A stretch of DNA of 63,902 bases, counting the filler, from Stramenopiles sp. TOSAG23-6 (taxonomy: Eukaryota), in NCBI GenBank assembly GCA_900128565.1. It is 3 parts of 3 records of this genome, joined end to end, with 100 filler letters (N's around TTAATTAATTAA, not from the genome) between each part and the next. Parts side by side here need not be neighbours in the genome. Positions count along the whole stretch, not along the records: positions 1 to 24,646 come from LT636002.1; positions 24,747 to 49,286 come from LT636003.1; positions 49,387 to 63,902 come from LT636137.1. One strand, 5' to 3'. Below the pieces are notes generated by a model, which saw nothing but the letters and a program-made list of their open reading frames with translations, made no database searches and was not told the origin of the DNA. The translations under genes and the position numbers were made by a program. Below, piece after piece: positions 1 through 54,700 of this stretch (the stretch's first letter is position 1; each line of letters starts with the position of its first letter).

Positions 1-77
1 TACAAAAAAATCGATTTTTTTTTCGTACGAAATTTTGTACCTAACGAATTTTTTTGAAATATTTTTCCAAAATACAT
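1..77 (+). mobile_element. Introner-like element, 3' part (5' end outside window)
   Basis: TTTCGTACGAAATTTTGTACCTAAC...GAAATATTTTTCCAAAATACAT matches the family consensus. An AG at 78-79 makes the exact end ambiguous. Confidence 0.85.
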
Positions 78-2725
78 AGTTTCCATTATGACACTATTTT
101 AAGTCATTCAAATGAAAACTTATCTATTCGATTTTATAGAATGAATGAATTTTCTGATTTTTCAGAAAGATTAAATATAAACACATATCCATCTATTATA
201 GCATTCAATACAGAATTAGCAACAATAAATACAAAAATGGATACTAAAATTGATCAAAAAGATAAAAAACCTAACTCTCATTGGTATGAAGTTGAGATTG
301 GACGTGTTGAAGGATTCGATCCTGACAAATTATCTACATTAATGCAAAATGTAAACCCTTTACCCAATTCTTATGAAAATGTCGAAAATAGTGAAACATC
401 AGAAATTACTCTATTTACGTTACCTGATACTAAACAAAGACAATTTCTTGCTGATTTGAAAAAGGATAAAATAAAAAATAGGAGAAATGTGTGCGTTGTA
501 AAACATTACATTTCGAATTCAATGTTTTTTTACTATGAAAATTGTATACCTAACGAATGTTTTTTACTACACATAACAATATATTTTTACAATACCTACC
601 AACCCTAGAGGATGTTGAAAAGAGTATGCTTACAAGAGTTGAAAGGAAGAGACTCGGTGATTTTAAGTTGACAACACATCTTTTGAATCAAATGGCTACA
701 GTATTATCAGTACATAAAAATGAGGAAAAGGCTTCTCATACGCTTGCGCAGGACTTATGGAGATCATGGTTACTCGAGCATAACAAAAGTGTGACTAGTG
801 ATGATGATGTTAGTCATAGTGTAAGTAATAGTGTTACTATTGATGATGTGAGTCATAGTATTACTATGGAATCAGATTATACAGGTAGAAATAGTTTGAA
901 TAGATTTATTCTTGAGTCGGCGTTTAAAGTCACTATTGGCATTGACAGTAGTAATAATAAAAAACCTTGGCCGCTACACGAAATGTCTGGTCAATCTGGG
1001 CATTCTCCAATTTGTGCAACAACTAGTAATATTGCTCACATTCGAAATAAATATGTTCAAGCGAAACTTTTCGGTGCTGAAATGGTACAATATAATACAT
1101 CTCTATCATCTATTGTAACAGTTATACCTTTGCAACCTTTAGGATTAAAATATGAAGACATCAATACAAACTCAGTATCAACAGTTGTATTATTTCGTGA
1201 CAAGCAGAAATTTATTTGGTTAGCAAAGGAATGTTATAATACAAATAAATGCCCATTTGATAATCGAGAAAACAGTAAAAAACTATTTTCCAAACAAGAT
1301 GAAAATCAACATAAAAGCCAAGATAAAAATTTCGGCATTATTACAATTTTACTCAAAGATAAAGTCTCAGTGGTATTTCATAAACTTTGCATTTCTATGC
1401 AATCACCATTTGTTAAAAATAAAAGCAAATCATCTGAAGACTTTCCCAAGAAGAAGAATACTATACAGGGTATTTCTTCGTATGGAATTCCAATGGGTTC
1501 ATACAGTATGCTATCAGGATACCCATTTAGATCTAGTTTTAGTATAGCTCCATTACTCACTGGTGTTGGTTGGAGGCCTATTTGGCGTCGAAATGGCCAT
1601 GTAGGAAATGGCAGAAGTAATCAAAGAAGGAAACATAAAGGTATGTGTGGTATTGCTATAGAAGATGGAGCATTACCTGATGAAAAATTACAATTTGCCC
1701 GATATACATTAATGAGTAATGCTAAAAACGAATATGTGATGGATAATAATGGAGTATATAAAAGAAAAATACATGATCCATGTAAAACAGCAACACAAAC
1801 ACTTAAAACTTATTTACTACAGTTAATTGAGTCAAAATTTGGTATTTCGCATAAATTATTAGATACGTCTTATAGTAACTGTAATGTAGGAGGAACTCAA
1901 GCTCCTTGTGTATTACGACGAGTAGCAAATGAAGTAGAGCTTCAAAAGATATCGGATCCTAATGATCAACATAATCATACTTATTGTGCCATGGTTTTCC
2001 TTAATGATGGTGATGGTGCAGGTAATTATGATCCATGGAGTAAAACACAGAATGAATACAAAGTAAAAAATGACACACAAAACAAATCTGAAAAAAACAA
2101 ATCTGAAAAAACTAAGTCTGAAAAAAACAAATCTGAAAAAAACAAGTCTGAGGAGAGAGAACGATGGAAATTCTATAGATTTATTGGGGGAGAAGTAGTA
2201 TTCATAGATGATATTATTGAAGTAAATGAAAATATATTCGATGCCCATGCAAAAAATAATACGCCGCAGAAGAAAAGAGGTGATCGTATTGATGATGTGG
2301 CGGAAGTTATGTCATCTGGTATTATTGTACAACCTAAAGCTGGGCGTGTTATTTTGTTCAGTACTGGAAAGGAAACTCTTTCATGTCAAATGCCATCCGT
2401 TGCGTCACATATTGAGGATGCTTATACGAATGAATCCGATGAATTTGATGAATCCAATAAATCTGATCAAGAAGATTCTCACTCAAAAAAAACATATGAA
2501 GAATTAAGTTTGTTTGGGCGACGTTCAACGCGCACAACTCTTCAACTTTGTTTTAAACCAAAGCTAAATAAATTTGAGACTATAAAAAGGACAAAAGCAA
2601 AGAAAAGGAGATTACATACTGAAATTGATTTATTACGATTAATGACTCTTAAAGGCATTCAAGATGACATTTATTATGATGAAAATGTAAACTTGAAGAA
2701 GAACAATTTGCTAAATGAAAACTAA
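78..2725 (+). CDS. 5'-truncated multi-exon protein with a degenerate 2OG-Fe(II) oxygenase/prolyl-hydroxylase-like C-terminal region; exons ~78-490 and ~598-2725
   Basis: ORFs 54..608 and 557..2725 are joined across an introner copy. Motifs YCAMVFLND, FIGGEVVF, VQPKAGRVILFSTG and RTTLQLCF resemble the 2OG-oxygenase fold. Contains a KSEKN tandem repeat. Confidence 0.5.
491..597 (+). mobile_element. Diverged introner-like intron (GT...CT predicted; canonical 489-610 GT-AG also in frame)
   Basis: GTGCGT start, TACCTAAC motif, ATATTTTTACAATAC end. Removal joins the two ORFs in frame. Confidence 0.7.
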
Positions 2726-4066: not shown

Positions 4067-4130
4067 GGAAAAGGAAAAAAAAGAAAAACAAAATAGTATT
4101 GAGAGAGAAAAAGCATTTTTCTCACTAAAA

Positions 4131-4216: not shown

Positions 4217-4272
4217 AATACAATACAATACAATTGTTTCGGGAAAGTTAGGAAAGATACAAGGGTAAGGAG

Positions 4273-6531: not shown

Positions 6532-8142
6532 TCATATTTCTACAGAATAATAGTTTAGCTTACGATCCATGCTTGATGTACACAATTCAGTACTATCTTT
6601 ATTGTTCCATTGAACACCAGTAACTTTCTTCTTGTGATCTTGCAATTGGCATAGCTTTGTCCATTTTTTAACGAGATAAACCGATACTTCATCATCAGCA
6701 ATTGCCAAATAGAGTCCAGAGTCATCAAATGCGACTTGGTTTATACTTTTTGAATCATTCGCCATATATGATTTTGTCGCCATTGCACCCAACATACCAT
6801 TACTTCCAGTAACAGCTAATTTGCGAAGATCAAATAAATGACAATATCCATTCGAGCGACCAGCACACATGTGATAACCATTCTCTGAAAAATTTAGACA
6901 AGTTATAGTCATTTTTGCACCCTCATTCTCGGGTACCTTTAACGTCGCTACACAACCGGCATTACCACCTATAACTTGGGTTTTCATATCAAATATACAT
7001 ACATCACCATCAGTTGTACCAACGCCTAATAAAGCGCCATCTGGGTGAAAAGATATACCTGATAGTCCCGTTTTGTTCAATGACTCATTCGTTAAAATAC
7101 ATGTTTGCTGTTGAATATCATGCAGAAGCCAAGAACCATTCGCTAAACATGAAGCTAAATACAATCCATTAGGGTGAAGTGAAATTCCAAGCACATTAGC
7201 GCCGACATTTTCTGAAAAAAATTCCTCGTAACTTTTTGTAGGTTTTTTTGGGGAACTATTTGCCGTAGGTCGCCACATTTTAATTGTTTCGTCAGCAGAA
7301 CAGGAAAAAATTAAATCCTCTGTAGGATGACAAATTATTTGATTAATACGCTTAGAGTGCCCTCGTAATGTAGACAATACTTTGCCACCTGTGCGCGAAG
7401 AAACCTTAATTTCCCCATCAATACCACCAGTCAGTACGAGGTTCGAGTGGTGAGCATAGAGACAAGAAATTCCAGCAGGATTCGTCTTGTGTAGGGTTTT
7501 CGCTTTTTGTAAATTCATTCCAGACATTTGACTTTTGTCTGGAAGTAGACTGGAACGATTATTCTTACGATCCTTTCGGATATTTGAAAGCTCAGAACAA
7601 GTTGACTTAATGGTCTGTATCACATTATCAGATAAACCTGAAGTCAGTCCGCCACTACCATCCACGTCCATTGCAGAGGCTTCGTTAGATTGATTTGTTC
7701 CAACACTTGCGTTAGTTGCTGCCGCAGCAACCTGAGCTCTAAGTCCTGTCACAACAGCTTGCAAATCATCCCTTTCTTTCAAAACTCTAGCAATGACACG
7801 GCAAGCAGCGTCGTGTTGGTAAAGCGCTTGGGAGAGTTCTTGCCGCACTTCGTGAAGATGCTTCTTTAAAGTAAAAGACTCAGACATGAGAGAATCCCAT
7901 TCATTTTGAAAGAGACCTAACATACCTGGAATTCCCATAGCGTCAACTGGACGAGGATTTACTGCACGAGGTGTTTTTACATCAATAACATCATCTGTCA
8001 ACGATAACGCCTCGCCTGTGACCGGACACGCACCATCGTGTTCTTCGAGATGTTGTTCTAAAAGACGACGTTCAAAAATATGTCCACTCTTGCGTGAAAT
8101 CACTGGATTTACCGGGGTATGTCCCGAAATGGAACAAAACAT
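6532..8142 (-). CDS. PRP19: Pre-mRNA processing factor 19 (U-box, coiled coil, WD40)
   Basis: MFCSISG...PVISRKSGHIFERRL U-box, FQNEWDSLM...RQELSQALYQHDAACRVIAR, then WD40 repeats. Start placed at the MFCS ATG. Confidence 0.96.
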   Translation of the reverse strand: MFCSISGHTPVNPVISRKSGHIFERRLLEQHLEEHDGACPVTGEALSLTDDVIDVKTPRAVNPRPVDAMGIPGMLGLFQNEWDSLMSESFTLKKHLHEVRQELSQALYQHDAACRVIARVLKERDDLQAVVTGLRAQVAAAATNASVGTNQSNEASAMDVDGSGGLTSGLSDNVIQTIKSTCSELSNIRKDRKNNRSSLLPDKSQMSGMNLQKAKTLHKTNPAGISCLYAHHSNLVLTGGIDGEIKVSSRTGGKVLSTLRGHSKRINQIICHPTEDLIFSCSADETIKMWRPTANSSPKKPTKSYEEFFSENVGANVLGISLHPNGLYLASCLANGSWLLHDIQQQTCILTNESLNKTGLSGISFHPDGALLGVGTTDGDVCIFDMKTQVIGGNAGCVATLKVPENEGAKMTITCLNFSENGYHMCAGRSNGYCHLFDLRKLAVTGSNGMLGAMATKSYMANDSKSINQVAFDDSGLYLAIADDEVSVYLVKKWTKLCQLQDHKKKVTGVQWNNKDSTELCTSSMDRKLNYYSVEI

Positions 8143-8539
8143 GATATGTTTATGCTTTTTTGATGAAATTTCAATGAATTTAACCCGTATGAGCAACTCA
8201 CTTTTATGTTTCGTTTCGAACTATAGGTAGCGTCACAGACTCCCCAAAAGAAGGAGCGCAAAGTTTTGTTCGCACCGCGACAAGACGAACACACGAAATC
8301 CTTGACTTTCGATTGATTGGCATTTTTGACAGTCAAACTCAAAAATTCAATTGGTATTTCATTTGGTCGTGAGTCGTGACTCGTGATTCTTCTTCTTCAC
8401 ACCTCGATCCAATACTTCAGTACAAGTTTATATACTATTATTGGAATAGTGAAATGACAACAGCGTATTAGACAGCCATATTTATAACAGTCAAGAATTA
8501 TAACTATATTATTGTCATTGTAGAAAAATTATTCATACT

Positions 8540-11706: not shown

Positions 11707-11745
11707 ATAGAATAAATATGAAAAAATATATAAAATATATGTCTT

Positions 11746-14700
11746 TTATAAAACATCTTTGTTTAAAACTGAATTGATTGTGTCTTCACTGTGTCCATCC
11801 TTTCGCATTTTCTCTCCAATTATTTTTTTCGGGAGTTTCATTAGATGCATTGCTTTGTAATGAAGTAAATTGTCCTCTGGTTGATCAACTCTAGGTTTTG
11901 GTGTACCATCAGAATTAGATATCAAATTTTCTGGGAGATTCATCAGATTCATTACTTTTTTGTGAAGTAGTTTGGTACTAGATGGCGTAGGTGGAGGTAA
12001 GAGTCCATCTGGGTGTAATTGTTGGGAAGGATTACTTGGCATTGAATCAATTTTGTCTACTACCTTGGTAGTAGATGGCGTAGGTGGAGGTAAATGTCCC
12101 TGTGGATGTAATGGATGCAATGGTTGGGAAGAATTACTTGTTATTGAATCAACTTTATCTACATCCTGTTGTGGATTCAATCTAGGTTTTTGTGTTTCTT
12201 CCAAATTAGATGTTTTTGTTTCAAGGGATGTTTTTCCTGTGGTTGATACATTATTATTTAAAATATCTTTATTAGTTGTTGATTTTGTTTCAAGAGATGT
12301 TTTTCCTGTGGCTGATACATTATTATTTGAAATATCTTTTTTAGTTGTTGATTTTGTTTCAAGAGATGTTTTTCCTGTGGTTGATACATTATTATTTGAA
12401 ATATCTTTTTTAGTTGTTTTTAATGAATCCGGTACTTGAATTTTATTTTCTACTTCCTTGTAATTAGTGTGCATCAAATCAGTCATTTTTTTCTCATGTA
12501 CTGCTGATTTGGTATAATGTAAACGTTCATTTCCTTGTGCTACTTCCTTTACTGTATTTAACGATTCTGAGACACTTACTTTGCTTCCTATTTCTTTATC
12601 GTCGGTATGTATCAATTCACTCAATTTTTGGAAACTATCGGTTTCAAGATCATCATCGGATTCATTAGTTTGGTTGGTTTCTTGTTTTCCTGTTTTCGAT
12701 GAGGAGAGATAAGAACCATCCTCTTGTACATTATTATGAGCACATTTTTCTATTGAAATCAAAACTGTAGGGAGGACATTTATCAAGTTGATACTTTCAG
12801 TTTTCAAGCTTTGTTTTGTGGAATCATTCGATAAACGAAAGTGTATAATATCACAAACGTTTTCCACGGTGAGAAATTTATTTCTTATTATTTCAATATC
12901 TTGGACGTCAGAAATATTTCGGTTTTTTTCAGCATCAAATTTTAGAACGAAGAAAAGTTGACCCCCGCCTACAAAAATATGTTCATTCAAATGAACGATC
13001 TTTAGCATATTACTTTCGTCGTTAATTTTCAGTACATTTCTTAATATTTTATCAAGACATTCCACAAATTTTGATTTCATTTTACCTTGTGCATTTTCTG
13101 TGAGTGATTCATCAGAAATGACTATACGACAAGCTAATGTAAAATTAACCGATGTATAAGCAACGGCGGCGTACATTCGTAGAGGGACTGCTACAGGAAC
13201 ATCTTGCGGTAGCATAATGTTCTCAGCGGCAAAACTCCATCCATAATCAGGTTCGAGCCGAATGACGCCATCACGTAGTTGATGAACTGCTTCTAAATCA
13301 ACAAATTCTAAATTATTTGTTTGCTGATAAAAACAAGAAAACATGCGCTTTTCGATGAATATTTGTACACGACATCTCAATGCACCAACACGTAGAACTC
13401 TAGCAACATGATACTTTGGATTGTGTCGACTAAACTTACATGTTAAATTTCGTTCATTCTTGAAAAATACAAACTCTCCAACCCGTGGAGGTGAATCACA
13501 GCCTAAAGGAATTAGCGTGGAGATAAATTCTTCTGTTACATGAACACCACGAGATGGTTTAAGGTTTGTTGAGTTAGTGAAAGTACAATCACTAATCTTT
13601 TGTTTGTCGTATGAATTTGTGAAGTAATCGTCTAAGTGTTTCTCCCACAAACTTCTTGGGTCATGTAATGACGTCGTATTACTATTTCTATAGCTTTGTT
13701 TTTTATATCGTTGCTTTTCTTTATATCTGACATATGCATCACCATCCTCGGGTGTTTGAGGATTGCGTAGTTGATCTATCAAATACATGAGCTTGTTTCT
13801 GTGAATAGGTTTCATTGAATTTAAATGATTATATTCAGTAAAGGTAATGAGATCTTCTATTGTGTCAATTCCCAAATGATTTACTAAATAATCATAATAA
13901 ATATCCAATTGTAGAGATTTGAGATAGTTTAATAAATCATCTGATGTATTGTTCTCATCTTTTTCATTACTTTGAAGATTTTCATTATTTGGAGTGTGTT
14001 TTGTGTTTGCTTTATTTGATTTTGAGGGTTCTTGACACGACTGAGTACCGGTATTAGCGAAAGTTTTCTTGACCTTTTGAACAGTTGCTATTTTTGATTC
14101 CTTATCATTTTTCTTCACACTATTTTTGAATGATTTACTACCTTCATTTACGGTTGATGTAAAATCAATATGATGTAATTGAGGTGACGTATTCATTGGA
14201 AGTTCATATTTTAATATAATATCATCTTCCCAAACCGGTTTTTTAAACGAAAAAGGCAACATATCATTTTCTTGTAATTCTTTTCTTATTTGTTTCTCTA
14301 GTTGCACTTCTTTTTGAGTTTTTTTCTGTACATTGCCACCATCAATATTATTTGTGTGTTGATTTTCTAAATATTTCAAACCTTCCTGAAGAATTAACCA
14401 AGGATTTGAAATGTCCATATTAGCTTGCTCTAGTCTTTCCATATCTACATATTGTTTTCGTGTTGACTCTGAAATGTATTTTGGAAAAATATTTCAAAAC
14501 AAATCTAAAAAAATTGTTAGGTACTAAATTTCGTACGAAAAAAAAATTGAATTTGAAAAAAAATAAAACATACATATGCTTCATATACTGATCAAGTGTT
14601 CTTAAATCTATATGACGATGTTTTATTGGTATTCCAAAACGATATTGATCTTCAGGATATTTTTTGATTACAGAACGCCTTGAGATATTATTGTTTTTAT

Positions 14701-22651: not shown

Positions 22652-24646
22652 TTAACTTGAGACCACTATTTTCTTTATGATTTCACCATTTGTTAATTCT
22701 GTTGTAGTTTTATTCTTTTTGATTTCACCATTTGTTAATTCTGTTGTAGTTTTACTCTTTTTCTTTTTCGTTTCACCATTTGTTAATTCTTTTGTAGTTT
22801 TACTCCGGTTGCGTTTTCTTGCCTGACCTCGTTTTCCTTTATGAGAATATGTTTTATATGGCTTCTTTGCTTCAACTTTTGGAAGTTCCCATTTGGATAA
22901 TTCAGCATAAGTTGATATTGCATCTCTCGATGGATACGATGAGATCGGATTACTTTCTTGAGCCTTGACAACTCCAGTCATCGCAAAAGAGATTGAGTCG
23001 TTTTCAGAAGATGAAGACGTTGACATTGAATCGCTTGTTACGACTCCTTCAGATGTTTGGGATACATCGGGTGACTTCCATACAGAGTTGTATACACCGT
23101 AAAAAATAGAACTATCGCGGGATATACATTCATCAAATCCAGGACCTCCATATAACTTTGCAGGATTTTTAAAACGCCAATGCCATCGAGTAGGCCATTG
23201 AACATGAGGTTTTTCACCCGCCCATTGAAGCCATTCTTGTCTTTCAGCTGGACCCCATTTAAGATTATGATTACTATAACAACATCCAGGACTAGGTAAG
23301 ACGATAGTACCATATCGAGCAGCAGTAAGACTTGCATCAGGTTCAGCAATTGTTTGCCGTTCCCAATAATTGCACTGACCCCAGACATATTGTGGTCCAT
23401 GTATTTTGGAAAAATATTTCAATTTTTTTTTTCAATTTGTTAGGTATAAAATTCCGTACGAAAAAAAAATTCATAGTAAAAAAAAAAATAAAACATACAT
23501 AACCTTTTGGTGCAACATTTGAATTATTTACAGGAAATGCCATCACTGTATCTCCGACGTCGCACTCCCGTAGTGTTACAGGAGGAGACACTACTCGTTT
23601 GAACGGCTTTGTTGTAAAAGAACATTTAGTTCTCGCATATAAATGAACAAGATCAGCTGCAGCAGCATGTGCAGGATTCTGCGATGCAAGAGATCGCAAA
23701 ACATCACGTATTAATACTAATTGTTGACGCATAGTAGAGACACCTTCAGCTGTTGGAGGATATACGACATCAGTGAGCTTACCTAAAATCAACCATTCAT
23801 TTGGTGGCGTATATTTTGAACAAGCGCTTAAAAGTCGCGCAATCATTGACACTTTTTCCTTTTTATCCCAGACCCCAGTAAGAATCTCCTTTGGTGTTAC
23901 ACGCCTGAGTGGACCAGTTTTATTTGATGTATCTTCCTGAACTACATGTTTAATCTTATCAAATGTAATGGCAAGATTTTGAACTCGATTATTAAATACT
24001 GTCGTTGCTTCCATTTCGGCAAAACTTCTAGGTAGTGGATAACCCGAAGCACGTGCAGCAATACATAACTCCGTGGGTAAATTATCTCTTTCTCTTTCAG
24101 CATAAGCAAGTATACTCGAACCCCATTTTTCTGCCCATTTTGGCAAACCATCTCTTGCGGCACCACCAACAGAAAATCCATGACGTACAAGTCGTTCGGC
24201 ATCAGACGATGATAGAGTTGGATTTTCACATGAATGAAGTATCGCACGAGTTCGTTCATATACTGTATGTTGTACAGCAAGAATTTGTTGAAACGCTTTG
24301 GAGTTCGAATAATATAAGAAACTACCACGACAACGTCTTGAGCCACAAAGACAAGCAGCAGCACGCCATTCATCAATACTTTCAGTTACAGAATTATAGT
24401 CAAAAGATAATTCTTCGCCATATTGTATATCTCTAAGCGTATACATTGCAATGACTAATCGATCTTTCACTGCCATTAATACAGTTGCACAATTTGGATC
24501 ACAACTATGACAAAGTCTAGATGCAAAATTACCACATGATATGTATTTTGGAAAAATATTTCAAAATGTTTTTTCGTTAGGTACAAAATTTTTTTACCAA
24601 AAAAAAAATAAATTCGATTTTTTTGTTAAAAAAAAAAAAACATACA
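22652..24646 (-). CDS. ATXR3: ATXR3/SDG2-like histone H3K4 SET methyltransferase, C-terminal part (5' lost in gap)
   Basis: GNFASRLCHSCDPNC, GEELSFDYNSVTES, CLCGSRRCRGSFL, NRVQNLAITFDKI, AAADLVHLYART and Y|GPQYVWGQ match the ATXR3 family pattern. Confidence 0.85.
23399..23498 (-). mobile_element. Introner-like intron, GT...AT, flanked by AT/AT
   Basis: ggt tat|GTATGT...TACCTAAC...AAAATACAT|gga cca caa restores YGPQYVWGQ. Confidence 0.88.
24541..24645 (-). mobile_element. Introner-like intron, GT...AT
   Basis: GTATGT...GTACCTAAC...GAAATATTTTTCCAAAATACAT|a tca tgt ggt aat ttt gca tct aga. The first AG after the branch motif falls inside the conserved SET motif. Confidence 0.85.
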
Positions 24647-24746
24647 NNNNNNNNNNNNNNNNNNNNNNNNNNNNNNNNNNNNNNNNNNNNTTAATTAATT
24701 AANNNNNNNNNNNNNNNNNNNNNNNNNNNNNNNNNNNNNNNNNNNN

Positions 24747-40603: not shown

Positions 40604-41275
40604 TTTCGAAATGATATGAGAATCTTTGAGGCATTAATATAGTATAAGAAATTGAAAAATTAATAAATTTTGGATTTCATCATTTATATTCTTTTTAGTT
40701 TTTAATATATTTTGTATCGTGAACATAAAAAACATATTAAAATTTGTACTGTTACCCGGTACCCACAATGAAAAAAATAACTCATAATAATAATTGTATC
40801 GGTGGAGAATTGAACCCAGTACAAAAAGTACAAAAAGTACAAAAATATTAAGAATGAAAAACATGACATTGTTAAAGGTTTACTCAAAGAAAGATAGAAT
40901 CGAACTATTATCCAATTAACGATTTAAAAAAATAACGCGTTGAAGATAGAATCGAACTATTACCCAGTTAAGGATCCACAGCTTTGAAGGCTGCGCCAAG
41001 AACCATCTTGGATCATCATCGCCTCGCCAACACCGAAGAATGAGACTGTTATACGAACAGTGTACCTCAAACATGTGTGTGGTAGATCAACGGCAATAGC
41101 TCAATGTTTAACTACTGAGCCACGCAGAAAATCAGAATTATAAAAAAATGATTTTACATGAATTTTTCTTTTTGTGTACGAGGTACCGGGTAATGACTAT
41201 ATCCGTTGAAATGGCCGACCGTTTTTGCCGTTGTACTCTAGGTACCAAACTAGACTGGAAGGAATATTTTCAACA

Positions 41276-42762
41276 ATGCGTGTTATCTGGAATGCTCTAC
41301 CAATTTTAGCAGTCCTTGCAATTACCAATGGAGAGGAAGATGTTACCAATAGCCAAGAAGATGGTACTCTTCAACTCGAAGTAAAAGATATTGGTACTCT
41401 CACAGTTCCTGCTAATGTTGAGCCAGCTAATGCAGTTGAAAACTTTGCAGCTCAGGTAAGTTGTATTTTTCTTTAATATTTCCAACTTTTATTATATTTT
41501 ATGTTTCGTTATCTTATATGTAGTAAACCCACAACGTATAACTCTATATTACAGGCAACGGAATCAGGAATAGGTATGAACCTTGAAGCAATGGAGCAAA
41601 TGCTGGACTATTTCTGCAGTAAACGCAGTTGCACCCGTAAGTTAGCTGGGCGACTTGAACTTACAATTGATGGTGTCGGCCGAGTTGTATGCGAAGCATG
41701 GGAGGAACCAGCAACAGTGGTTGAGAAATTTTCTGGAAAAGCATCAGCAGCTGGTCATGGCATCACAGAGCAAGCAATGAATCAAATGATGGACTTTTTC
41801 TGCCAACGAAAGTCATGTAATCGAAAGGTGACAGGTCCTTTAAAACTAACAGTCAAAGGTTTGGGCAGTGTTGAATGTCAACCTTGGCAAGATCCTGCAG
41901 ACGCAGTGGAGCAATTTGCTGGTGCTGCAGTTGCGGCTGGTTTACCAATATCTCAGGAAGGTATGGAAGATATGTTGCTTTGGTTTTGTCAGCGAAGAAA
42001 ATGTTCACGTCGTCTGTCTGGGCCATTGTCACTAGAAGTGAAAGATGTCGGAATTGTAAAGGTACAAGCTTGGGAAGATCCAATGACAGTTATTGAAGAA
42101 TTTGCAACCAGAGCCGTAGAAGCAGGTCATGGTATAAACGATGAAACTCTGCATAAAATGAAAGACTTTTTTTGTACACGAAAGCAGTGCATGCGGGAAG
42201 TTAATCCAAGGTTGGAGTTGAATGTTAAAGACGTTGGTAAACTTATTGTTGCTCCTTGGCAACAACCAGCAGCGATGATAGAAGACTTCGCCGCACAAGC
42301 CGTTGCTGCTGGACATCCTATGTCGGAAGAAGCGATGTCACAAATGTATGAATATTTTTGTACTAAACGTCACTGCAACCGGGAATTATCAAAAAAGATG
42401 AGCTTGGAATTAAAAGATGTTGGCACGTACGTTTTTAAAATTGTTTTTTTTTTCGTAAGAAATTCCGTACCTAATGATTTTTTTTTAAATTNTTTTTTTT
42501 TTTTTTTTTTTTTTGAAGTAAATTTTGTACCTAATTAAAAATATCAAATGTAAAATATTTTTTCTTATACATTCTTGTGGTACTTCCATGGCAAGATCCT
42601 GCAGACTCCATCGAAGATTTTACATCTCAGGCCACCAATGCAGGACACAAGGTAGGTCCAACAGAAATGAGGAAAATGATGGAATATTTTTGTGCAAGGA
42701 GAAGTTGCCAACGATTGAGTCTCAATGCTCCACAAGCAGCAGCATTACATAAAGAATTATGA
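41276..42762 (+). CDS. Signal-peptide protein built from six ~62-aa CxxxxC repeats, ending in HKEL; exons 41276-41455, 41555-42426, 42573-42762
   Basis: Repeat LxLxVKDVGxLxVxPWQxPAxxVExF...AGH...MxxMMxxFCxRKxCxR. Canonical GT-AG intron 41456-41554 plus introner 42427-42572. Confidence 0.8.
42427..42572 (+). mobile_element. Introner-like intron, GT...AT, with a duplicated GTACCTAA block
   Basis: ggc ac|GTACGT...AAATATTTTTTCTTATACAT|t ctt gtg restores KDVGTLVVLPWQDP, matching the sister repeats. Confidence 0.85.
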
Positions 42763-42901
42763 TCTTATGTAGAGTTATGCTTAGAAGGTATTTTCTTTTA
42801 TTATTATACAGTACTATAGTCGAATCAAAGATGAAAATCTAATTTATAATTTTGAATTATGATAAAAATAAAATAGTTGATACAAATTGATTATAAAATA
42901 T

Positions 42902-45178
42902 TTACGACCAGACAGTCTTTTTCGAAAGCAAGCGCCACTTCTTTCGCTGATCTCTTATTAAGAACTCTACAGATTTTAGTAGTATTTTTGCATCTAGGAA
43001 GCAAACATCAGATCCATAAACAACGGCTTGAACAGCTAACATTAACTTGTCAACTTCACGACCTGAAAATTTGTCCATTTGCTTTGCCACTTTTTCAATA
43101 ACTTTATCTGTTATATCATCTGAAACTTCAATTTTGGCATCTCCATTCAAACCAATTTTTGCCCACATACGATTGATAAATGTATCTCTTTTCTTGTGTT
43201 GTAGTATATACTTATCAAAATACAGTTTTGTAAGTTTTATTCTTCCTTGCAGATCAGGAAGAGTATATTCTAAGGCTTCGTCTAAACGATCAGCTACAGC
43301 CATATCGAGATCACCTGGCCTATTTGTCGCAAGGACCATCATAAAATCTTTTTGTGGTGTACCCGTGTGATATAAAATAGCAGACACTGCATTACGAAGA
43401 GTTTCTGAAAGAACATTATTACGAGATCCAAGGAAAGCTTCAGCTTCATCAATAAATAAAAGTAAGCCTCTTTTGGAACTTCGTGCCCAATCCATTACCT
43501 TATGCAATTCAGTGACCGCTTGCTCACCCAATGGAGCTACATCTCCACCAGACATAATTGCATAATCAAGACCAGCTCTATGCGCTAGCTGACGAGCGGT
43601 CATTGTTTTTCCTGTTCCAGGTGGACCATGGATTATGAAAAATATTTCAAACATTAAAATCGTTAGGTACAAAATTTCGTACGAAAAAAAGTAATTCGAA
43701 ATTGAAATGAAAACGTACATAAAAGAGGAAGTGTCGCATTGGTGCACCATGCCTTCGCGCATTACCGATTGATAATGCCATACGTCGGAGACGAATATCT
43801 AATTCATTGGGTAAAATAATACCTTTAAAAGCATCGGGCTCTTTAATACCTCGAAATCGTCGATACATTTTCATTATTGATTGTTTTGTACGGTTAAATA
43901 AAGAAAAATGATGATTATCTTTAGAGCTTTCACGTAACAAATCTGGTCGCTTCAATCGTCTTGCTACTTCTGCTGCCATCACCTTTGCAAATTCTTTACT
44001 TACAAACAGCATTAGACCTGAAACTCCAAGGAATAGACCTGTCGTAATTAGCTGTTGTGGAGAGGATAAGAAATGTGCTATACCTTCTCCAAGTAAACGA
44101 AATCCAGTCTTGATTGCAGCAATAAGTTTCTGACGATCATGAATAGCCTGCTTTGCCTGCATGTATCGTGAAAAATATTTGTAGTAAAAAAAATCGTTAG
44201 GTACAAAATTTTCATAGTAAAAAATAAAATGAAATGAATGATGAGAACGTACATTCGTTTGGCAATATCTTCGTTTTCTCTTTCTTGACGAATTTTTGAT
44301 TCGCCTTCTATCTGCGCTGCTTCTACAGTTGCTTCTGCCTGTAACTGTGCACGTCGCATCGCCGCCTCCGCTTTCATCTCTTCCAAGTCTCGTTCATTTT
44401 GCATTCGATATGTCTCTTGAACACGAGACGCTTCAGATTGAAGAGAAACGAGCTCTTCATTACGTTCGCGAGCCATTGAATTTTCTACCTTATTTCGCTC
44501 ACGAGATAACCGATCATCATATTCAACATTAGCTGCCTCCTGTTTGGCTTTGAATTCAAGACTTTTCCGATCCTGATCACCCTTGGTGCGTTCTTTTTCA
44601 ACCCAAAGTTCGGCTAACCGTACCTCTGCTTCCTTTAATTTTCGTTTATTCACTAATTCCAACTCTGCTTCTTTCAATAATCGAAGTTGTACAAGTCCTA
44701 ACTCATCTTGGAGACTTCCTAATTCAGATGTGATATTATGATTGAATCCAGTGAAGTATTCAAATTCACTAATTAGCTGTTGTGTCGCAGCGATGTTAGT
44801 CCAAAACAAATTTGTTGGATTAATCATATGAAAGTTTTCTACTTCCATTTTCTTTTCTTCATCTTTCAAATGAACATTTATTGAAGGCATCACTGTCACT
44901 GCATCTGGTAAAACAGCTAATAATTCCTGTGCAAACACTCCAACATGTCTTCTATTTTTAAATCGAGCACTCTCAAATTGTGAAGAGACATATTCAAACT
45001 CTTTTAGGCTCAACCTTTTTAAGAGTCGCATAGAGTCAAGTGTATCTACCGGCATGACATTTTTCTTAACGCGCTTATCGGAGGCAATAGCGTGGAAAGC
45101 GTATACATCTATTGGACAAAGAAGAAATATATATACGAAAATGCATATCAAAATGCAGGTTCTAACCAATATGCTCAT
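42902..45178 (-). CDS. ATAD3: ATAD3-like AAA+ ATPase with an N-terminal hydrophobic leader and a peptidase S74/ICA domain; exons 45178-44253, 44160-43719, 43627-42902
   Basis: RHFLFY|GPPGTGKT, GLDYAIMSGGDVAPLG, LLFIDEAEAFL, VLATNRPGDLD, FSGRE, PDLLRESS and RENEDI match ATAD3. SDKRVKKN...GVFAQEL..VLPDAV matches the ICA domain. Confidence 0.88.
43628..43718 (-). mobile_element. Introner-like intron, GT...AT, immediately before the Walker A motif
   Basis: ttt tat|GTACGT...TTCGTACGAA...TACCTAAC...ATAATCCAT|ggt cca cct gga. Confidence 0.9.
44161..44252 (-). mobile_element. Introner-like intron, GT...AT
   Basis: cga at|GTACGT...GTACCTAAC...CACGATACAT|g cag. The nearby AGs are in the wrong phase. 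Confidence 0.88.
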
Positions 45179-45486
45179 GTCTCAAATGGATTAATTCTAG
45201 ACTGGTAGATGAATGTAAGTAGCTTCGAATAAGTACATACTTTTCATGGACAAAAGTAGTGTCCGTTGCTTGAAACCGTCGACCGTTATCTTAGTATGAA
45301 AAATTCGTACCAAACTGGCAAACGCAAATTTGCTATTGTCATACTTGTTTAACAGTTGAGAGCTTCGTGTGATAAGCTCGCTAGTCTTGAACAAATTTCA
45401 ATTATAATTGTGCTTAAATGTATGTATCATATGTGTCATATGTGATACGGATTACTGGTTAAAGTGTAGTATACTTTTTGTTCCTC

Positions 45487-48400
45487 ATGCCTAGTGTAGA
45501 CGAAAAAGAAGTTCCCACTTTCGGAGAGAAAATTTCTTCTTCTGAAGAAATTACATCAAGTGAGGAGAAATATAGTACTGAGACAAGTAGTCATTCAAAA
45601 ACACATCGTTCTGAAAACTCGGATCCCGAAGAATGGTCAGATCACTCCAGTGTAGCGACATACTTTGATCTCATTGATAGATTACTTTCAAATGATGCTT
45701 CACTCGTAGACATCGATTTGGGTCAGGCAAAGCTGGGTGATAAGGGGGCAACAACAATTTCAGAAGTTTTAAAGACAAATACCAAAATCCAATCGTTAGA
45801 CTTGACGTTCAATAATATAGAAAGTAAAGGTGCAGCAGCAATTTCAGAAGCATTTGGCTGGATAGAAGGTTGTGATAGATACCATAGGGAAAACGGTGGA
45901 GATATACCTTCAATTGAAGAGGAAGAAGTTACAGATGAAGATGAGGACAAAGATAAAGAAGATGAAGAACAACTAGAAGAATCCGAGAAAAAACACGATG
46001 AAGATGTGGACAAAGATAAAGATCCCATTACAAAAATAGAATATAGAATTGAAGGGAATAATAATAATACCATAGCTAAAGTAGAGGGTGATGATGAAAA
46101 AGAATGCGTTCCAGATTTTGTACCTCATCCTATGAAAGCTTGCTCATCTTCACTGCTAGCTATTGACTTGTCTGAAAATCCTATAGGTCCACACACTTCC
46201 GCTGAATTTTTAAGAGCTGCTGTGGTTTCTTTAGAAGAGATTAGAGCAGTAGGTATTGGAGCTGGCTGGTTAGGTGCTTTTGGCGTGGCTCATGGTTTAG
46301 AAGAAGTCGAGACTTGCCCATTACGTTGCTTAGATCTTTCACATAATAATATAGAAGACAAAGGAGCCGTGCGACTTGCACAGGCATTAAAACACACGGT
46401 TAAAAGAGAGTCTGCGTTTGATAATACAGGCCCGGTCGCTAAGCTTCGCGCACTATTCTTGAATAATAATGGTATCGGACCGACAGGAGTATCCGCATTG
46501 TGCGATGCACTTCGTTTTCATAAACATATTGAAGTATTGCAACTAAGGTTTAATCGAATAAGAGTAGATGGCGCTGCAAAGGTTTCCTCATTTATACGGT
46601 ATAACAAAACAATTACTCATCTGGACTTACGTTCATGTGCCCTAGGTGATAAAGGCTCGAAAAGATTAGGAAGTGCTCTAGAGTCGTCACAAGGTATTAG
46701 ATCCCTATGGCTTGCAGGAAACCAAATAGGTGAAAAGGGAGGGAAATATATATTTCTAGGACTACAACACAACAAGACGATTACTGAATTGGACTTACAT
46801 AGTAATTTCATCAACGATGAAGCTACAAAAGCATTATGTGGCACACTCGAAGAAAATGTGACTCTTCAAATGTTAAATTTGCGTGACAACAAAGTAAATT
46901 GCGCAGGTGCATCCAATATTGCAAAAGGATTGTCAAAAAATGGAACGTTACAATATTTGGATTTATCACGTAATACAGTTGCAAATGTTGGGGCTTGTGA
47001 CCTTGCATTCGCATTGAGTGCTTCAATGTCTATGAGGAAGCTTGATATAAGCGACAATGCAATAGGTGCCAAAGGTGGATCTGCGTTAGAGGCTTGTAGA
47101 TCATCAAGTTTAGAAAAACGGATGGAGCAGCACAACCAGCTCCAGAGAGAGCGTCTCGAAGAAATAAAAAGAATCAAAGAGAAGCAAGCAAAACGTAAAA
47201 AAAAGCATCTCCAAAAAATAGCAAAACAAAAGGCACAACGAAGAGCTAAAGTATTTGCTGATGCTGTTTCAAATGGAAAAATCAAGATGTATTCATTTAG
47301 CGATGATGACTTGAGTGACGTTTCGAATTCAGTTGATGAAAGCAAGATCTTAAACGGACAAGATAGCAATGAAACCAGAATTATCCGCATTGACTACTTG
47401 AATGAAGCGAAGACTGAAGATGATGAAATGATAAGCTCTGAGAGCGATACACAAGTTCAGGAAGAAGAAATACGGTTGCATATACTATCAAATGCAGTGG
47501 AACCTCCACCAATTTTAGAAATTGAGATGGGCAATGAACGTTTACTCACTGGCAACCCAGGATTTCTTCATGTATCACCAAAAGAACCCGATATATACAC
47601 AGAATTAGAAATTCAATGTATGCACCAATATACTAGACGAAAGAGGCCAACAGTAACACCGCGCATGAAACATCGAGCTCAAACTACAATAATTAGGAAG
47701 CACAAAAAGCATAAATATCGGCAAAGATCAAAAACAACACATCAGAGACAGACTGTGAAAGATCGTCTCAAAACGGTTGACTTTAAGTGGGATGATAATA
47801 TACCATCAAGGCCATCCACTAATCACACAAGGCTGTATACAAGTCAATCAAGACCTTATACGAGCATTACAAGACCACATACACATCACTCTAGGGCATA
47901 TACAGATGTTTTAAGACCTCACACAAGTATTTCAAGAGCACACACAAACTATTCAATATACACGAGACCCTATACGAGTAATACGAGGCCTTATACTAGC
48001 CGAACTGACATAAGTGCGGTGAGTTTTACTGACTCACTCACTGATTATTTCCAACGAGATACACATACCAAGGAGCGAGACACACGAAAGTTGCGTAGTC
48101 TATCGAGGTATTCGTCATTATATGGAGATACCACAAGAGCATCGACAACTTCAACAAAGAGTACCTGGATGAAATCCAGTGTTAAAAGACGCGAAAATCT
48201 TTTGGATATGTCCCCTCGGCCATACAGTAGACAACGTGGTATCATTGGTACTCCACTGTATTCTAAAAATCAGCATGGTCGACCTACATCCGAGAAAGGT
48301 GTTTTACATGTATATAATCGACCCAAGACAATACGCCGACATACAAAGAGTACAAGTACACATCTCTGGATGGAAACTACAAACGCCTCTACAAAACATA

Positions 48401-48597
48401 GTTTATATGAGGCAAAAGAACAGGCAGAGGCCGATAGACTTGCTTTGATAGAAGAAAAAAAGGCAGAGAGAGAAGCAAAGAAGAAAAAACGGGAAGAGGA
48501 AATGAAAGCATTACTAGAACGTGGATCTAGAAGTACTACTACATCATCCGTAACAATATCTTCCCGTTCAAGCACAAGAGGAGTATCTAATGAGTAA
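45487..48597 (+). CDS. Ribonuclease-inhibitor-type (NLRC3-like) LRR protein with a coiled coil and an RPxT-repeat tail
   Basis: Many 28-aa LxxLxLxxNxIGxxG repeats; SRPYTS/TRPHT repeats. Confidence 0.85.
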   Translation: MPSVDEKEVPTFGEKISSSEEITSSEEKYSTETSSHSKTHRSENSDPEEWSDHSSVATYFDLIDRLLSNDASLVDIDLGQAKLGDKGATTISEVLKTNTKIQSLDLTFNNIESKGAAAISEAFGWIEGCDRYHRENGGDIPSIEEEEVTDEDEDKDKEDEEQLEESEKKHDEDVDKDKDPITKIEYRIEGNNNNTIAKVEGDDEKECVPDFVPHPMKACSSSLLAIDLSENPIGPHTSAEFLRAAVVSLEEIRAVGIGAGWLGAFGVAHGLEEVETCPLRCLDLSHNNIEDKGAVRLAQALKHTVKRESAFDNTGPVAKLRALFLNNNGIGPTGVSALCDALRFHKHIEVLQLRFNRIRVDGAAKVSSFIRYNKTITHLDLRSCALGDKGSKRLGSALESSQGIRSLWLAGNQIGEKGGKYIFLGLQHNKTITELDLHSNFINDEATKALCGTLEENVTLQMLNLRDNKVNCAGASNIAKGLSKNGTLQYLDLSRNTVANVGACDLAFALSASMSMRKLDISDNAIGAKGGSALEACRSSSLEKRMEQHNQLQRERLEEIKRIKEKQAKRKKKHLQKIAKQKAQRRAKVFADAVSNGKIKMYSFSDDDLSDVSNSVDESKILNGQDSNETRIIRIDYLNEAKTEDDEMISSESDTQVQEEEIRLHILSNAVEPPPILEIEMGNERLLTGNPGFLHVSPKEPDIYTELEIQCMHQYTRRKRPTVTPRMKHRAQTTIIRKHKKHKYRQRSKTTHQRQTVKDRLKTVDFKWDDNIPSRPSTNHTRLYTSQSRPYTSITRPHTHHSRAYTDVLRPHTSISRAHTNYSIYTRPYTSNTRPYTSRTDISAVSFTDSLTDYFQRDTHTKERDTRKLRSLSRYSSLYGDTTRASTTSTKSTWMKSSVKRRENLLDMSPRPYSRQRGIIGTPLYSKNQHGRPTSEKGVLHVYNRPKTIRRHTKSTSTHLWMETTNASTKHSLYEAKEQAEADRLALIEEKKAEREAKKKKREEEMKALLERGSRSTTTSSVTISSRSSTRGVSNE

Positions 48598-48696
48598 CTT
48601 AAAATATGTACAAAAAATGCTCTTTATAGTTACATGTAGATAGAGCAATCATGAATTATAATAATAATCATGTTTTGTCATTCAAAATGTTATTAG

Positions 48697-49226
48697 CTAT
48701 TTCCGCCGCTTAGTCTTGGATTTTCGAATAAAAGATTTGGCCTTTAAAGACGGCATTTTACCGTTAAAGAAACCAGAAAATAAAGAAATTTCCCCAGTCT
48801 TTTTCTTCTTTTTCTTCTTCTTTTTCTTCTCATTCTTCAAACCAGAAACGAATGCCGCATTGAGGTTCATCGCCGGCCACTTTTGCACCTTGCACAATTT
48901 TCTTTTTTTTTTGCCATTACTTTCAATACTTTTTACCACATGATTTTGTTCCTTCTCATGATGTAGGACACTTACACTTTCTGCTGGTGAAGATATTTTG
49001 AGTTTGTTTCGTTTTTTTCCATTTCCTTTAGTTAGTTTTGCTGCATTTCCAATAGGTGCTGCAAAATCCTCTTCCAAGTTTACTTCCATTTCATTATCAC
49101 TTTGTTTTTGTGCTGCAAAATCCTCTTCCAAGTTCACTTCCATTTCATTATCACTTTGTTTTTCTGCAATGTTTGATGAATTTTTAGTATTATCCTCTTC
49201 ACATGTTTCATTCATACATCCATTAG
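48697..49226 (-). CDS. 3'-terminal exon of a Lys-rich protein (upstream part lost in gap)
   Basis: Open frame after an introner 3' end; 54-bp internal duplication. Confidence 0.55.
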
Positions 49227-49286
49227 ATAAATTTTGGAAAAATATTTCAAAAAAAAAAANCTAAANTTNGTNAGTACAAATTTTTT
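49227..49286 (-). mobile_element. Introner-like element, 3' part, ending ...AAAATTTAT at a gap edge
   Basis: TTTGTAC..., GAAATATTTTTCCAAAATTTAT|ct aat; low-quality bases nearby. Confidence 0.7.
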
Positions 49287-49386
49287 NNNNNNNNNNNNNN
49301 NNNNNNNNNNNNNNNNNNNNNNNNNNNNNNTTAATTAATTAANNNNNNNNNNNNNNNNNNNNNNNNNNNNNNNNNNNNNNNNNNNN

Positions 49387-49447
49387 GTTAGGTACAAAAT
49401 TTCGTACGAAAAAAAAACTTCGAAATTGAAAAAAAAATAAAGCATAC
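49387..49447 (-). mobile_element. Introner-like element, 5' part, at a gap edge
   Basis: gat|GTATGC...TTCGTACGAAATTTTGTACCTAAC. Confidence 0.85.
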
Positions 49448-51438: not shown

Positions 51439-51766
51439 GATAAAATAGATAAATTAAAACAGAATTTTAGATAATATTTGAATTACATGCATTTTGTTAA
51501 CAAATGTTGGTACTGCATTTAATATCAATAATTAGCTAATAATAATTTTAATAAAGACTTCTCAATATTTTACTTTTAGCTATATTTACTATGGTATTGT
51601 TGTTACCCGCAGTAATTGTCTCTATAGCCTAGCTAGGTAAATAAGGAATCTTATTTTTGTTACAAATGGCTAAATTTTTCTATGATTTCATTTATTTACA
51701 ATAAGTTATTTAAGTAGAACTAGTATCTACCATTTACACTATAATTTAATCAAGTTAAGGTGGGTG

Positions 51767-54700
51767 TTACTCTTCCTCTTCTCCAAATATCGCAATAGCC
51801 TTAGCAAATTTCGCTGTGACACGTTTATTTTCGGCTAACCAGGCATTTTCATCTTCTTGAATAGCTTTTGATATTGCTGTATCGATCTCCAGTTCAAGAT
51901 TTGTTTTTTCTTTGTCAGTTGCATTTGTTTTTCTCATTTGCTCTTCAGTAGCCAATAAAAGCGCCTGTAAAGCTCTTGTTGGTCTCGTACAGGAACTGTG
52001 GACACTATGAAGAACCTTATATGCTAGCTCAAATGTAAAGGGCCCAATGTTAGCCCACAGAGGAAGTTCCGGTTGTTCATCACTCTCAACACACACTGTC
52101 GATGTTGACTTATCCGTTTGATATTCTGTGCTAGTTGAAGTACTATCTGAAACATTTGTTGCCGATCGTCTTCTTCGTTTTGTACCATGACCTCGAAGTA
52201 CAGCGCGGTGATAACGTCTTAATTCCGGTATTGTAGGGTCAAGAGCTGTGTCACATCCGTAACACCAAATGGTGCCTTTTTTTAATCCAATAACTACCAA
52301 ATGACCACTACTTTTCATATGATCTAACATGTGGCGATTTGTATATCGACCGCAAAATACATTACCACAGAACAAGCATAACATATTTTCTTTTGTTTCT
52401 TCAGATACAGAAAGATTTTGAATTGAGTCACCTCTTGTTAGAATAGGTTTCGAAGAACGAATACCGCGACGACGGGAGTGTAAAGAACCAATATCAATGT
52501 CTTCAGAGTGCATTTTTATTGAAGATGCACACGTCACACAATTACGATGCACTAGGTTTTTATAGGCCTCTGTTTTAGACAGCAATGATTGTGATTGGAT
52601 ACCACTAATCGATGACTCCTTCCATGTACTCTTAATGTCTTGTACATTACTATTGTTTCGCTTTCGAGTTTTGCCTACAATCTTTTCTAGAGTAAGTCTT
52701 TGAAATAATACATCTTTTATATGAACACAGTCACTTTTAGCCTTTCCAATATGAGGTGTTGAAATTCTCTTTTGTTGTTCTTTAATTAAATTTATTCTAT
52801 ATTGAGGAAATGCTACAGACAATAAACATTCAGCTCTAAAAGCACTATAGGCTATTCTTCCTTCAGTAAAACATAGTTTTTTTGTTAAATCCAAGCTCTT
52901 CGCGGCATGCAATCGAGTAAGACCGAATGCACCAACATTACTCTGAAGTTTAGCCATTTCTTCCAAAAAAGACTTTTCGCGTTTTTGTTCCACCTCTGAC
53001 TCTATCCGCGATAAACGCATTGTTGCCTTTGTAAACGAAGCTGTTGCAACTGCCCTTGATTCAGCGCATAGCATAGATAGAACAGGATTGACAATTTTAT
53101 TCAAAGAATTCAGAATAATTTTTAACCCTTGAGCAATCTTGCATCCACTTAAAAGGTCTAGGGCTTCTGCAGCTTCTGCAACAGAATAAATATTGAATGT
53201 TGATGTGTGAAGAACTTGATGGTCTTCAAGTGAACTTACCCGTTTGTGCTCTATATTAGCTGCGCCATTTATTCTATTATATGCCTCTGCGTTATCTATG
53301 GCTATACCAATTAAACTGAGAACATAAAGACAAAAATCCGAAGCTGGTGCATTATATGCTTTTGAACTCGTAAGAGCAATCTGTATATCAGAACCATAAT
53401 CTCCAGAACCCAAGATAGCATCAATACTATAGCTACTTTTGTGCTTCTTTCGCCAAGCTGATATTTCTCTCAATCGATTAGCACTCAATCCACCTAGACA
53501 AACTCCACTTTCAGTATCATTTATGTCATTTAGTGATTTATTTATCGTACCACCAATACATTTTGAATCTTCATTTATGTCATTATTGCGTATGCCATTT
53601 GTCTCTGAATTACCTGTTTCCAACTGCTCCATGGCGTTCACCTTACCTTCCGTGTAATTTATAGTTGAATTCAATGATTCCAAAATAGTTCTATTATCAC
53701 CACTAGTGTCACTATCTGCATCATTATTCGAACTTTCCAAAATAGTTCCATTATCACCACTAGTGTCACTATCTGCATCATTATTCGAACTTTCATCGCT
53801 TTTTTGTCTTATATGAGTACCCTTTTGTTTCTTTTGTTTCTCACATGTGTATTGTATTCCAATTGAAGCTCTTTGTTTATCAGCAATAGCACAAAGCTGT
53901 TTTACCCTTATGAGTTTGCATGTTTTTTTGACACAACTATTTTTTGTACTATTTTTGCAACTAAATTTATGATTCGTACAATCAAAATTGGTTGTGATTC
54001 CAGGAAAATAATTAACATCTCCAAGATACAGGCCAAATCCAAAAGCATTCACTGAAAGAAAAATACTACCAGCAGTTCCATCTTGAAAAAGTTGGCTGGG
54101 AAAGCCCTTTTCAACTGTTGGGTCTAACACTACGATTTTATTACGTATCGTGAAAAAATATTTCAAAAAAATAATCGTTAGGTACAGAATTTCGTACTAA
54201 AAACAAAAAAAACAAAAAAAAATTAAAATGAAAACGTACACACGACATGAGCCAGAGATAATTTCGGAGACCGTAGTCAGTATCACGAACACTACATTTC
54301 GAGCCTGAGCGAGGATCTTTTGTACCACCCATTAATTTATGACCGATAGGATATATTTTTTTACCAGTACAAGAATATTCACGAGGATGCTCCTTCGCGT
54401 GAAAGAGTATTCCCATGTCATACGTACTTTGCAAGTACTCAGTAAGTACAGAATTTTGTAGCAATTTATTTTGAGTGACACCTTTTCGTAAAGAATCTCT
54501 TCTGTGAAGAAATAAATGTCCATGGTAAAGATCCCAACCTGTAAACTCGCAAGCCGTAGGTGCGTTGAATTGAATATGATGAAATAATGTAGCAAAAAAT
54601 TGTGCGCATTTTGGGTCTCTTAATTCCCTAATTTGTTCGCTTCTTCCACTAATAACGTGTTTCACAGGTGAAAGTAATGAATCTGGAATATTTTCATCTT

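Follow-up and report, generated by a model that had tools for sequence, protein, structure and literature searches.

How can an intron be removed cleanly when it does not end in AG, and how would many look-alike copies of it have come to lie in unrelated genes? These questions are raised by a stretch of 63,902 nucleotides (the window) from Stramenopiles sp. TOSAG23-6 (assembly GCA_900128565.1; parts of records LT636002.1, LT636003.1 and LT636137.1, joined by filler), in which coding sequence is interrupted by short elements that begin with GTAYGT and mostly end two bases beyond ATAC. The elements of this family are introns that are spliced from RNA. They probably make up a proliferating, introner-like family of very high-copy, short spliceosomal introns in an AT-rich, intron-poor, MAST-3-like stramenopile.

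A 25-mer core of the family has six matches in the window at up to 3 mismatches and none in 100 shuffles, and the 3' box GAAATATTTTTC, with 1 mismatch allowed, is found 12 times where shuffles average 2.08. An nhmmer profile made from eight copies gives 12 matches that resolve into 10 loci, 3 on the plus strand and 7 on the minus strand (Table 1), a density of 10 copies per 64 kb of window. The host genes are seven and unrelated: two without a Pfam family, a SET/SDG2-like gene, a gene for an ATAD3-like AAA ATPase, a zf-UBP gene and two small genes, the SET/SDG2-like and ATAD3-like genes having two copies each. Nine of the 10 copies lie in the sense orientation with open exon on either side; the 5' exon of the remaining one (24541-24645) is lost in a run of N. 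The original prediction of one repeated intron family, in unrelated genes and on both strands, is thus borne out. Its figure of 11 copies becomes 10 loci, the dimer-like copy at 42427 having probably been counted twice.

Table 1. Introns identified in the window, with the last two bases of the preceding exon and of the intron where both could be scored (ORF, open reading frame).
Feature	Position	Strand	Evidence	Last two bases, exon/intron	Basis of that pair
Family intron truncated at the window start (3' part remains), 3' end ...CCAAAATAC+AT	1..77	+	nhmmer E=1.3e-14; frame 78-490 open		
Diverged family intron GTGCGT...ACAATAC+CT	491..597	+	nhmmer E=8.6e-14; 107-nt removal preserves frame; 5' site chosen post hoc as better match	GT/CT (491)	frame, 5' site post hoc
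Family intron GTATGT...CCAAAATAC+AT, exon flank AT	14474..14573	-	nhmmer E=3.5e-16; two long ORFs join only with core + 2 nt removed	AT/AT (14573)	frame
Family intron, SET/SDG2-like gene, exon flank AT	23399..23498	-	nhmmer E=3.5e-15; phase 0, joins ORFs 23343-24560 and 22652-23431	AT/AT (23498)	frame, Pfam
Family intron splitting SET domain, 5' exon in N run	24541..24645	-	nhmmer E=1.1e-12; SET profile positions 58-105 start just downstream		
Family intron with duplicated branch-box module, exon flank AC	42427..42572	+	X7 record 10 joins 42426-42573, no mismatch at joint	AC/AT (42427)	RNA, unambiguous
Family intron ATCC+AT, just before Walker A, ATAD3-like AAA ATPase	43628..43718	-	X7 record 12, X8 record 16 (91 nt removed)	AT/AT (43718)	RNA
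Family intron GTACGT...CACGATAC+AT, ATAD3_N region	44161..44252	-	X7 record 13, X8 record 16 (92 nt removed); relative's ORF uninterrupted	AT/AT (44252)	RNA, homologue
Family intron with internal N gaps, 3' boundary 49225 or 49228 by frame	49225..49447	-	nhmmer E=1.1e-07 (5' half), 0.26 (3' half)	AT vs TA or CT, probable mismatch (49447)	frame, N-ridden low-quality stretch
Family intron GTACGT...CACGATAC+GT, zf-UBP gene, exon flank GT	54143..54239	-	nhmmer E=9.7e-14; frame regained only by core + 2 nt removal	GT/GT (54239)	frame
Ordinary GTAAGT...TACAG intron, contrast, non-family	41456..41554	+	X8 record 14 joins across 99 nt; same small gene as 42427-42572		

Are these elements removed from RNA? 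Public sequencing runs, located using positions 42600-49200, provided contig sets on 40600-49259 (8.66 kb) from three polyA or other metatranscriptome runs and from one independent DNA metagenome (X4). The RNA runs with bridging contigs, X7 and X8, come from one study and X4 from another. RNA contigs bridge 42426|42573, 43626|43718 and 44159|44252, that is, all three of the complete family copies within this stretch, and a single 1,415-nt RNA contig lacks both ATAD3 introns. In X4, contigs span the exon-intron border at either end of 44161-44252, and the 44159|44252 joint is found in 0 contigs. Since the joint is present in polyA RNA contigs and the intron is kept in DNA contigs, removal occurs at the RNA level. 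The same observations already disfavor the idea that the elements are excised from DNA in the manner of ciliate internal eliminated sequences. Such sequences are bounded by TA, and a precise removal that leaves one copy of a 2-bp repeat does resemble their excision. However, the DNA contigs retain the elements beside their exons, the joint is confined to polyA RNA contigs of two runs, and the elements carry strong boxes of the spliceosomal type at the 5' end and the branch position, so that DNA-level excision is hardly credible here.

The exact cut is best seen at 42427-42572, where the exon ends ...GGCAC, the intron runs GTACG...ATACAT and the next exon begins TCTTG. Because the neighboring bases differ, the junction cannot slide: the ends are unambiguously GT...AT, and the 3' site is not AG. 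Copies with a repeated AT (or AT followed by G) allow the joint to shift by as many as 3 places. Further support for the cuts comes from reading frame and protein homology. Excision from the G of GTAYGT through the second base after ATAC is the sole in-frame option at 14573, 43718, 44252 and 54239, and at 23498 it joins two long ORFs; the GT...GT ends of 54143-54239 and the GT...CT ends of 491-597 are likewise deduced from the frame. At 43718, joining the exons recreates HFLFY|GPPGTGKT (the Walker A motif), the AAA Pfam match beginning after the intron, and at 23498 the Pfam SDG2_C family is matched over positions 1-283 in the preceding exon and 289-396 in the following one. Across the 44252 join, the homologous protein P0121 aligns residue for residue. 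For the GT/GT junction of 54143-54239, the homologue check gave only 2 distant matches (35-36% identity over 19% of the query) and was uninformative. As originally predicted, then, removal is scarless, RNA contigs joining the exons exactly, and the 3' end need not be AG, the cut falling 2 nt past ATAC. The ordinary GT-AG intron at 41456-41554 is bridged in the same gene as 42427-42572, so that the cell splices two kinds of intron. The ATAD3-like gene has a peculiarity of its own: the N-terminal part of its protein (44078-45181, minus strand) matches the Pfam family Peptidase_S74 (endosialidase chaperone) at 4.6e-12.

The likeness among the copies goes beyond splice signals alone. Any two copies have an identity of 0.56-0.87 along their full length, the clean copies are 91-146 nt long, and the similarity covers spacers and extra boxes, with recognizable subtypes within the family. 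The order of parts is constant: GTAYGT and a run of T; an optional box of the TTCGAA type; a palindromic TTTCGTACGAAA box or its variant TACTATGAAAA; a branch-like box, TACCTAAC; a spacer; and a 3' module consisting of G, C or A followed by AAATATTTTT, then ...ATAC and two more bases. The 5' end is GTATG followed by T or C in four copies, GTACGT in four and GTGCGT in one. ATAC plus 2 nt forms the 3' end in 8 of the 10, the exceptions being 43718 (ATCC+AT) and 49447 (ATTT+AT or a variant). The branch-box module occurs twice in tandem in 42427-42572, and in some RNA and DNA contigs from elsewhere the branch module is preceded by the 3' module, so that the family includes variants whose interior is duplicated or reordered.

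How is the 3' end chosen if not by AG? The branch-like TACCTAAC box is separated from the 3' end by 32-43 nt, and the distance from the AAATATTTTT tract to the 3' end, counted directly on the sequences, is a constant 21-22 nt in 10 of 10 copies. The RNA-verified copy at 43718 ends ATCC+AT, and since it is spliced with ATCC, ATAC is not strictly required. Between the branch box and the 3' end there is 1 AG in nine copies against 7.7 in shuffles (p=0.0007), and whole introns have 5 against 23.6. This avoidance fits a spliceosome that would use any AG offered, but the copies are related by descent, so that neither these counts nor the spacing are independent samples. RNAalifold finds 0 conserved pairs, single-sequence z-scores range from -0.94 to +0.34 with none better than shuffles, and a 4-bp stem pairing the two ends is present in the minimum-energy or centroid fold of only 3 of 7 copies. 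We infer that position, not AG, determines where the 3' cut falls and, as there is no conserved fold, that this position is read from the sequence boxes.

Rigid boxes combined with variable last bases could also be the mark of a minor-type second splicing system. U12 introns have the 5' box RTATCCTT and the branch sequence TCCTTAAC about 10-20 nt from the 3' end, and they tolerate several 3' dinucleotides; the U2-type branch consensus is TACTAAC. The family shares with the U12 type its rigid 5' and branch boxes, its variety of last bases (AT, GT, CT) and its coexistence with ordinary introns, and TACCTAAC is intermediate between the two branch consensus sequences, as might be expected of a transformed and expanded U12-like class beside normal GT-AG introns. 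However, the 5' end is GTAYGTTTT, without the U12 hallmark TCCTT, and the branch box stands 32-43 nt from the 3' end, which places the elements outside the U12 definition. No snRNA genes were found in the window either, the Rfam search giving only tRNA-Sec. A U12-like origin is accordingly very improbable.

The intron core is very highly repeated in the DNA metagenome. In X4, from which 2,701 contigs were placed on the 8.66 kb, summed contig depth in 289-nt bins reaches 24,928, 5,572 and 1,024 at three copies and 293 at 42427-42572, with 2.4-10.5 elsewhere; these sums are not copy numbers and may include relatives. Runs of N (24647-24746, 42492 and 49260-49386) lie in or beside three family copies, and metagenome DNA contigs also end inside introns, indicating that short-read assemblies break at this repeat. 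Further searches were made in other collections. The 25-mer had 0 matches in metagenome_contigs, where a gapped pattern gave 62 loci of which 0 matched the family profile at E<=1e-3, all of them thus being chance. Two family motifs gave 0 and 0 matches in viral_contigs and again 0 and 0 in genome_contigs, and an exact look-up of 10 exon ORFs, as a search for strain variants, found 0 of 10.

The comparison of orthologues called for by the original prediction could be made at one site. P0121, a 266-aa protein from a 35-kb contig of a relative, matches the ATAD3-like gene at 80% identity in the end of exon 1 and at 68% in the middle exon, with no gap across 44161-44252. The relative thus seems to lack this intron, to judge from the peptide alignment. 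P0121 starts with M where the window has V, as is typical of an ORF caller. Its other end, ...GIVLPPT and a stop, comes 28 codons before the window's 43718 site (compared with 43719-43800, minus strand). The T and stop would fit a phase-2 GTAAGT intron, and the relative may have an intron at another position, as far as a peptide can tell.

Could these simply be old introns that never moved, alike because an intron-poor lineage demands long, near-invariant splicing signals? The genome is indeed intron-poor, with uninterrupted ORFs of up to 5,302 aa, the best-conserved blocks stand where the 5' site, branch site and pyrimidine tract are expected, and the copies have diverged by 13-44%. On the other hand, similarity reaches the spacers and extra boxes and defines subtypes, the relative's ORF is uninterrupted at 44161-44252, and one gene with a family copy also has a spliced GT-AG intron whose signals are loose, so that long signals are no general requirement. 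Repetition and the uninterrupted ORF, compared at a single site, favor acquisition from a family that moves, and old introns that stayed in place appear improbable.

What, then, are the two bases beyond ATAC? They had been predicted to be the second copy of a 2-bp target-site duplication, the first being the last two bases of the exon. The direct repeats cited for this are exact in all five cases, AT/AT at 14573, 23498, 43718 and 44252 and GT/GT at 54239 (54143-54239), but the exceptions at 42427, 491 and 49447 (Table 1) were left unlisted. The exon ends in AT in 5 of 8 copies, compared with a window frequency of 9.6% (binomial ~4e-4), and AT at this place is not called for by U1 pairing. Insertion at AT with duplication explains both the exonic and the intronic AT, as well as the GT/GT pair, by a single cause. 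The 4-nt inverted ends GTAY/ATAC, and the two GTACGT copies that finish in ACGATAC, also speak for a target-site model.

Each copy brings its own strong signals (5' site, palindromic box, branch-like box and 3' module). If the family is mobile, it would have spread as an element that inserted into coding sequence, with a preference for places just after an exonic AT. That the inserting agent was a non-autonomous DNA element with ends GTAY...ATAC, making a 2-bp duplication whose second copy became the last two bases of the intron, is a proposition to which we give slightly less than an even chance. Older copies would have lost the match between exon and intron dinucleotides by mutation. More tentatively still, the spliceosome of this lineage may have gained, for one class of introns, an AG-independent choice of the 3' site, with a box in the intron as the reference point for the distance; a small transposon that duplicates 2 bp of its target would thereby be removed without a scar whatever the dinucleotide, and would by now have become the dominant intron type, with thousands of copies.

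A different route, of the kind proposed for fungal introner-like elements, would run through RNA: the excised intron reverse-splices into other transcripts behind an AT, and a DNA copy is then made. This would leave no duplication, and the terminal ACAT would belong to the element itself. All splicing signals do lie within the element, the RNA-verified copy at 42427 shows no duplication, and the nine copies in sense orientation are all those with a readable flanking exon. Neither a transposase nor long inverted ends were found, and AT|, the favored end of the exon, would serve as a proto-splice site. However, GT/GT at 54239 and the variation of the last two bases (AT, GT, CT) are unexpected if the end is the element's own. 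Fungal introner-like elements are predicted to fold stably, and here no stable or conserved fold was seen. On balance, RNA-mediated spread is unlikely, and insertion of a DNA element is the route preferred here.

Several observations weigh against that preference, and against the mobile-family account more broadly. The last two bases of exon and intron match in 5 of the 8 copies of 10 that could be scored (AT four times, GT once), for which a permutation test yields p=0.14 (p=0.095 once the low-quality copy is left out); because AT is the consensus on each side alone, most of the AT/AT matches are uninformative. The AC/AT pair of 42427 is verified by RNA and unambiguous, and the GT/CT pair of 491 and the probable mismatch of 49447 are further departures. 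A 2-bp target-site duplication is therefore not established. The tiny inverted ends that had been noted, GTAY/ATAC, are visible at just 4 nt (6-7 nt with one indel in some copies), and 43718 and 49447 are without them. Two GTACGT copies end in ACGATAC, and a co-variation of 5' GTACGT with 3' ACGATAC was considered; of the 4 GTACGT copies only 2 show it, and it was not built on. No transposase, intergenic or antisense copy or within-species empty site was seen; the predicted absence of a transposase from the window holds, no such domain being found among its 22 ORFs of at least 200 aa. Divergence of 13-44% implies that there was no very recent burst, or else that the copies are under constraint. 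As for the material itself, the RNA and DNA evidence consists of assembled contigs rather than raw reads, both bridging RNA runs belong to the same study, and P0121, read as a peptide only, is taken for a genomic ORF on the strength of its 35-kb contig and start codon.

The window is AT-rich (31-41% G+C), gene-dense and intron-poor, with the longest stop-to-stop ORF at 5,302 aa. An intronless Prp19 ORF (6532-8220, minus strand) has 89% identity to a coding sequence in EukProt with a source name starting GSMAST32, the next-best matches being at about 47% and then about 40% identity, with brown algae among the named ones. Going by that label, the host is presumably a MAST-3-like heterotrophic marine stramenopile. 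Other features of the window include the single intron-free open frame of 5,302 codons (24695-40603, plus strand), with Agenet/Tudor, PUB, several EF-hand and WD40 matches, and a selenocysteine tRNA gene (40936-41022, minus strand; Rfam tRNA-Sec 64.3 bits, ARAGORN anticodon TCA), which implies that the protist uses selenoproteins. At 57667-59559 (plus strand) this unicellular stramenopile encodes a homologue of Cys-loop (pentameric ligand-gated) channels, with an EF-hand match after the transmembrane region.

Why does such a family matter? It offers a natural case of efficient GT...AT splicing with a textbook 5' site and branch box, beside GT-AG introns in one gene, and hence a clean setting in which to study how the 3' splice site is picked without AG. 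If the duplication model is true, the loosening of one splicing rule opens coding sequence to mass colonization by transposons, and mass colonization is the central open question of episodic intron gain. There is a practical side as well. Of the 11 introns identified in the window, 10 are of the non-AG family kind, and programs that predict genes on the GT-AG rule will cut short or break up most of the genes with introns in these uncultured, common protists. MAST-3 single-cell assemblies have few predicted genes, 3,289 and 2,694 for 19-21 Mb in the part of PMC5778133 that reports them, and one may speculate that these low numbers are owing to the non-AG intron class.

Where does the family stand among known introns? 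It works like introners, as these are treated in parts of PMC11282704, PMC12130899 and PMC7789003. With the introners of Micromonas pusilla and Aureococcus anophagefferens, MITE-like DNA transposons turned introns, it shares many alike short introns in unrelated genes, an element that supplies one splice site, scarless removal of the element together with what would here be one flank copy, and no transposase inside the element (the relevant portions of PMC11282704 and PMC7789003). Those introners differ in having clear duplications of at least 3 nt, constant inverted ends and GT/GC-AG borders with the AG taken from the duplication. The introns of the present family finish in AT, GT or CT, their duplication, if real, is of 2 bp, and the inverted repeat at their ends spans 4 nt. 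In Zymoseptoria and other Dothideomycetes, fungal introner-like elements are near-copies of about 100 nt that carry their own signals, make no duplications and have canonical GT-AG ends. Short introns that are much like one another and bring all of their own signals are thus common to both (such elements are also described in part of PMC5647799), but the non-AG 3' end and a fold no better than shuffled set the present family outside the fungal definition.

Two families with unusual borders come closer in other respects. The introns of Fritillaria borealis derived from miniature inverted-repeat transposable elements are likewise repeat-derived and spliced at non-AG ends, including AC and AT, and a changed spliceosome has been proposed for them (passages of PMC11282704 and PMC13326754). 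By comparison, the family described here has a textbook GTAYGT 5' end and a yeast-like branch box, departs from the rule at the 3' end only, and has no hairpins. The introners of Amoebophrya (Syndiniales), also a marine protist, are repeated non-GT-AG introns with short direct repeats overlapping their borders and no internal transposase, but they have inverted repeats of 8-20 nt that form hairpins, direct repeats of 3-5 nt in variable position and no consistent terminal dinucleotides, and U1 snRNA was not detectable (all according to the sections of PMC7789003 on these introns). The present family shows no significant folding and has strong, fixed boxes at the 5' end and the branch position; the conserved stem that joins the ends of hairpin-type introns in euglenids or Amoebophrya is absent (RNAalifold, 0 pairs).

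No prior description of such introns in MAST-3-like stramenopiles was found in the literature, where supplementary splice-site tables may exist. One introner survey, in the part of PMC12130899 that sets out its filter, accepted only AG or AC as familiar 3' sites, so that a GT...AT family could have been missed or discarded. What is new here, beside the introners of Micromonas, Aureococcus, Fritillaria and Amoebophrya, is a set of transposon-like, non-canonical introns with GT...AT ends and a canonical 5' site in a MAST-3-like stramenopile.

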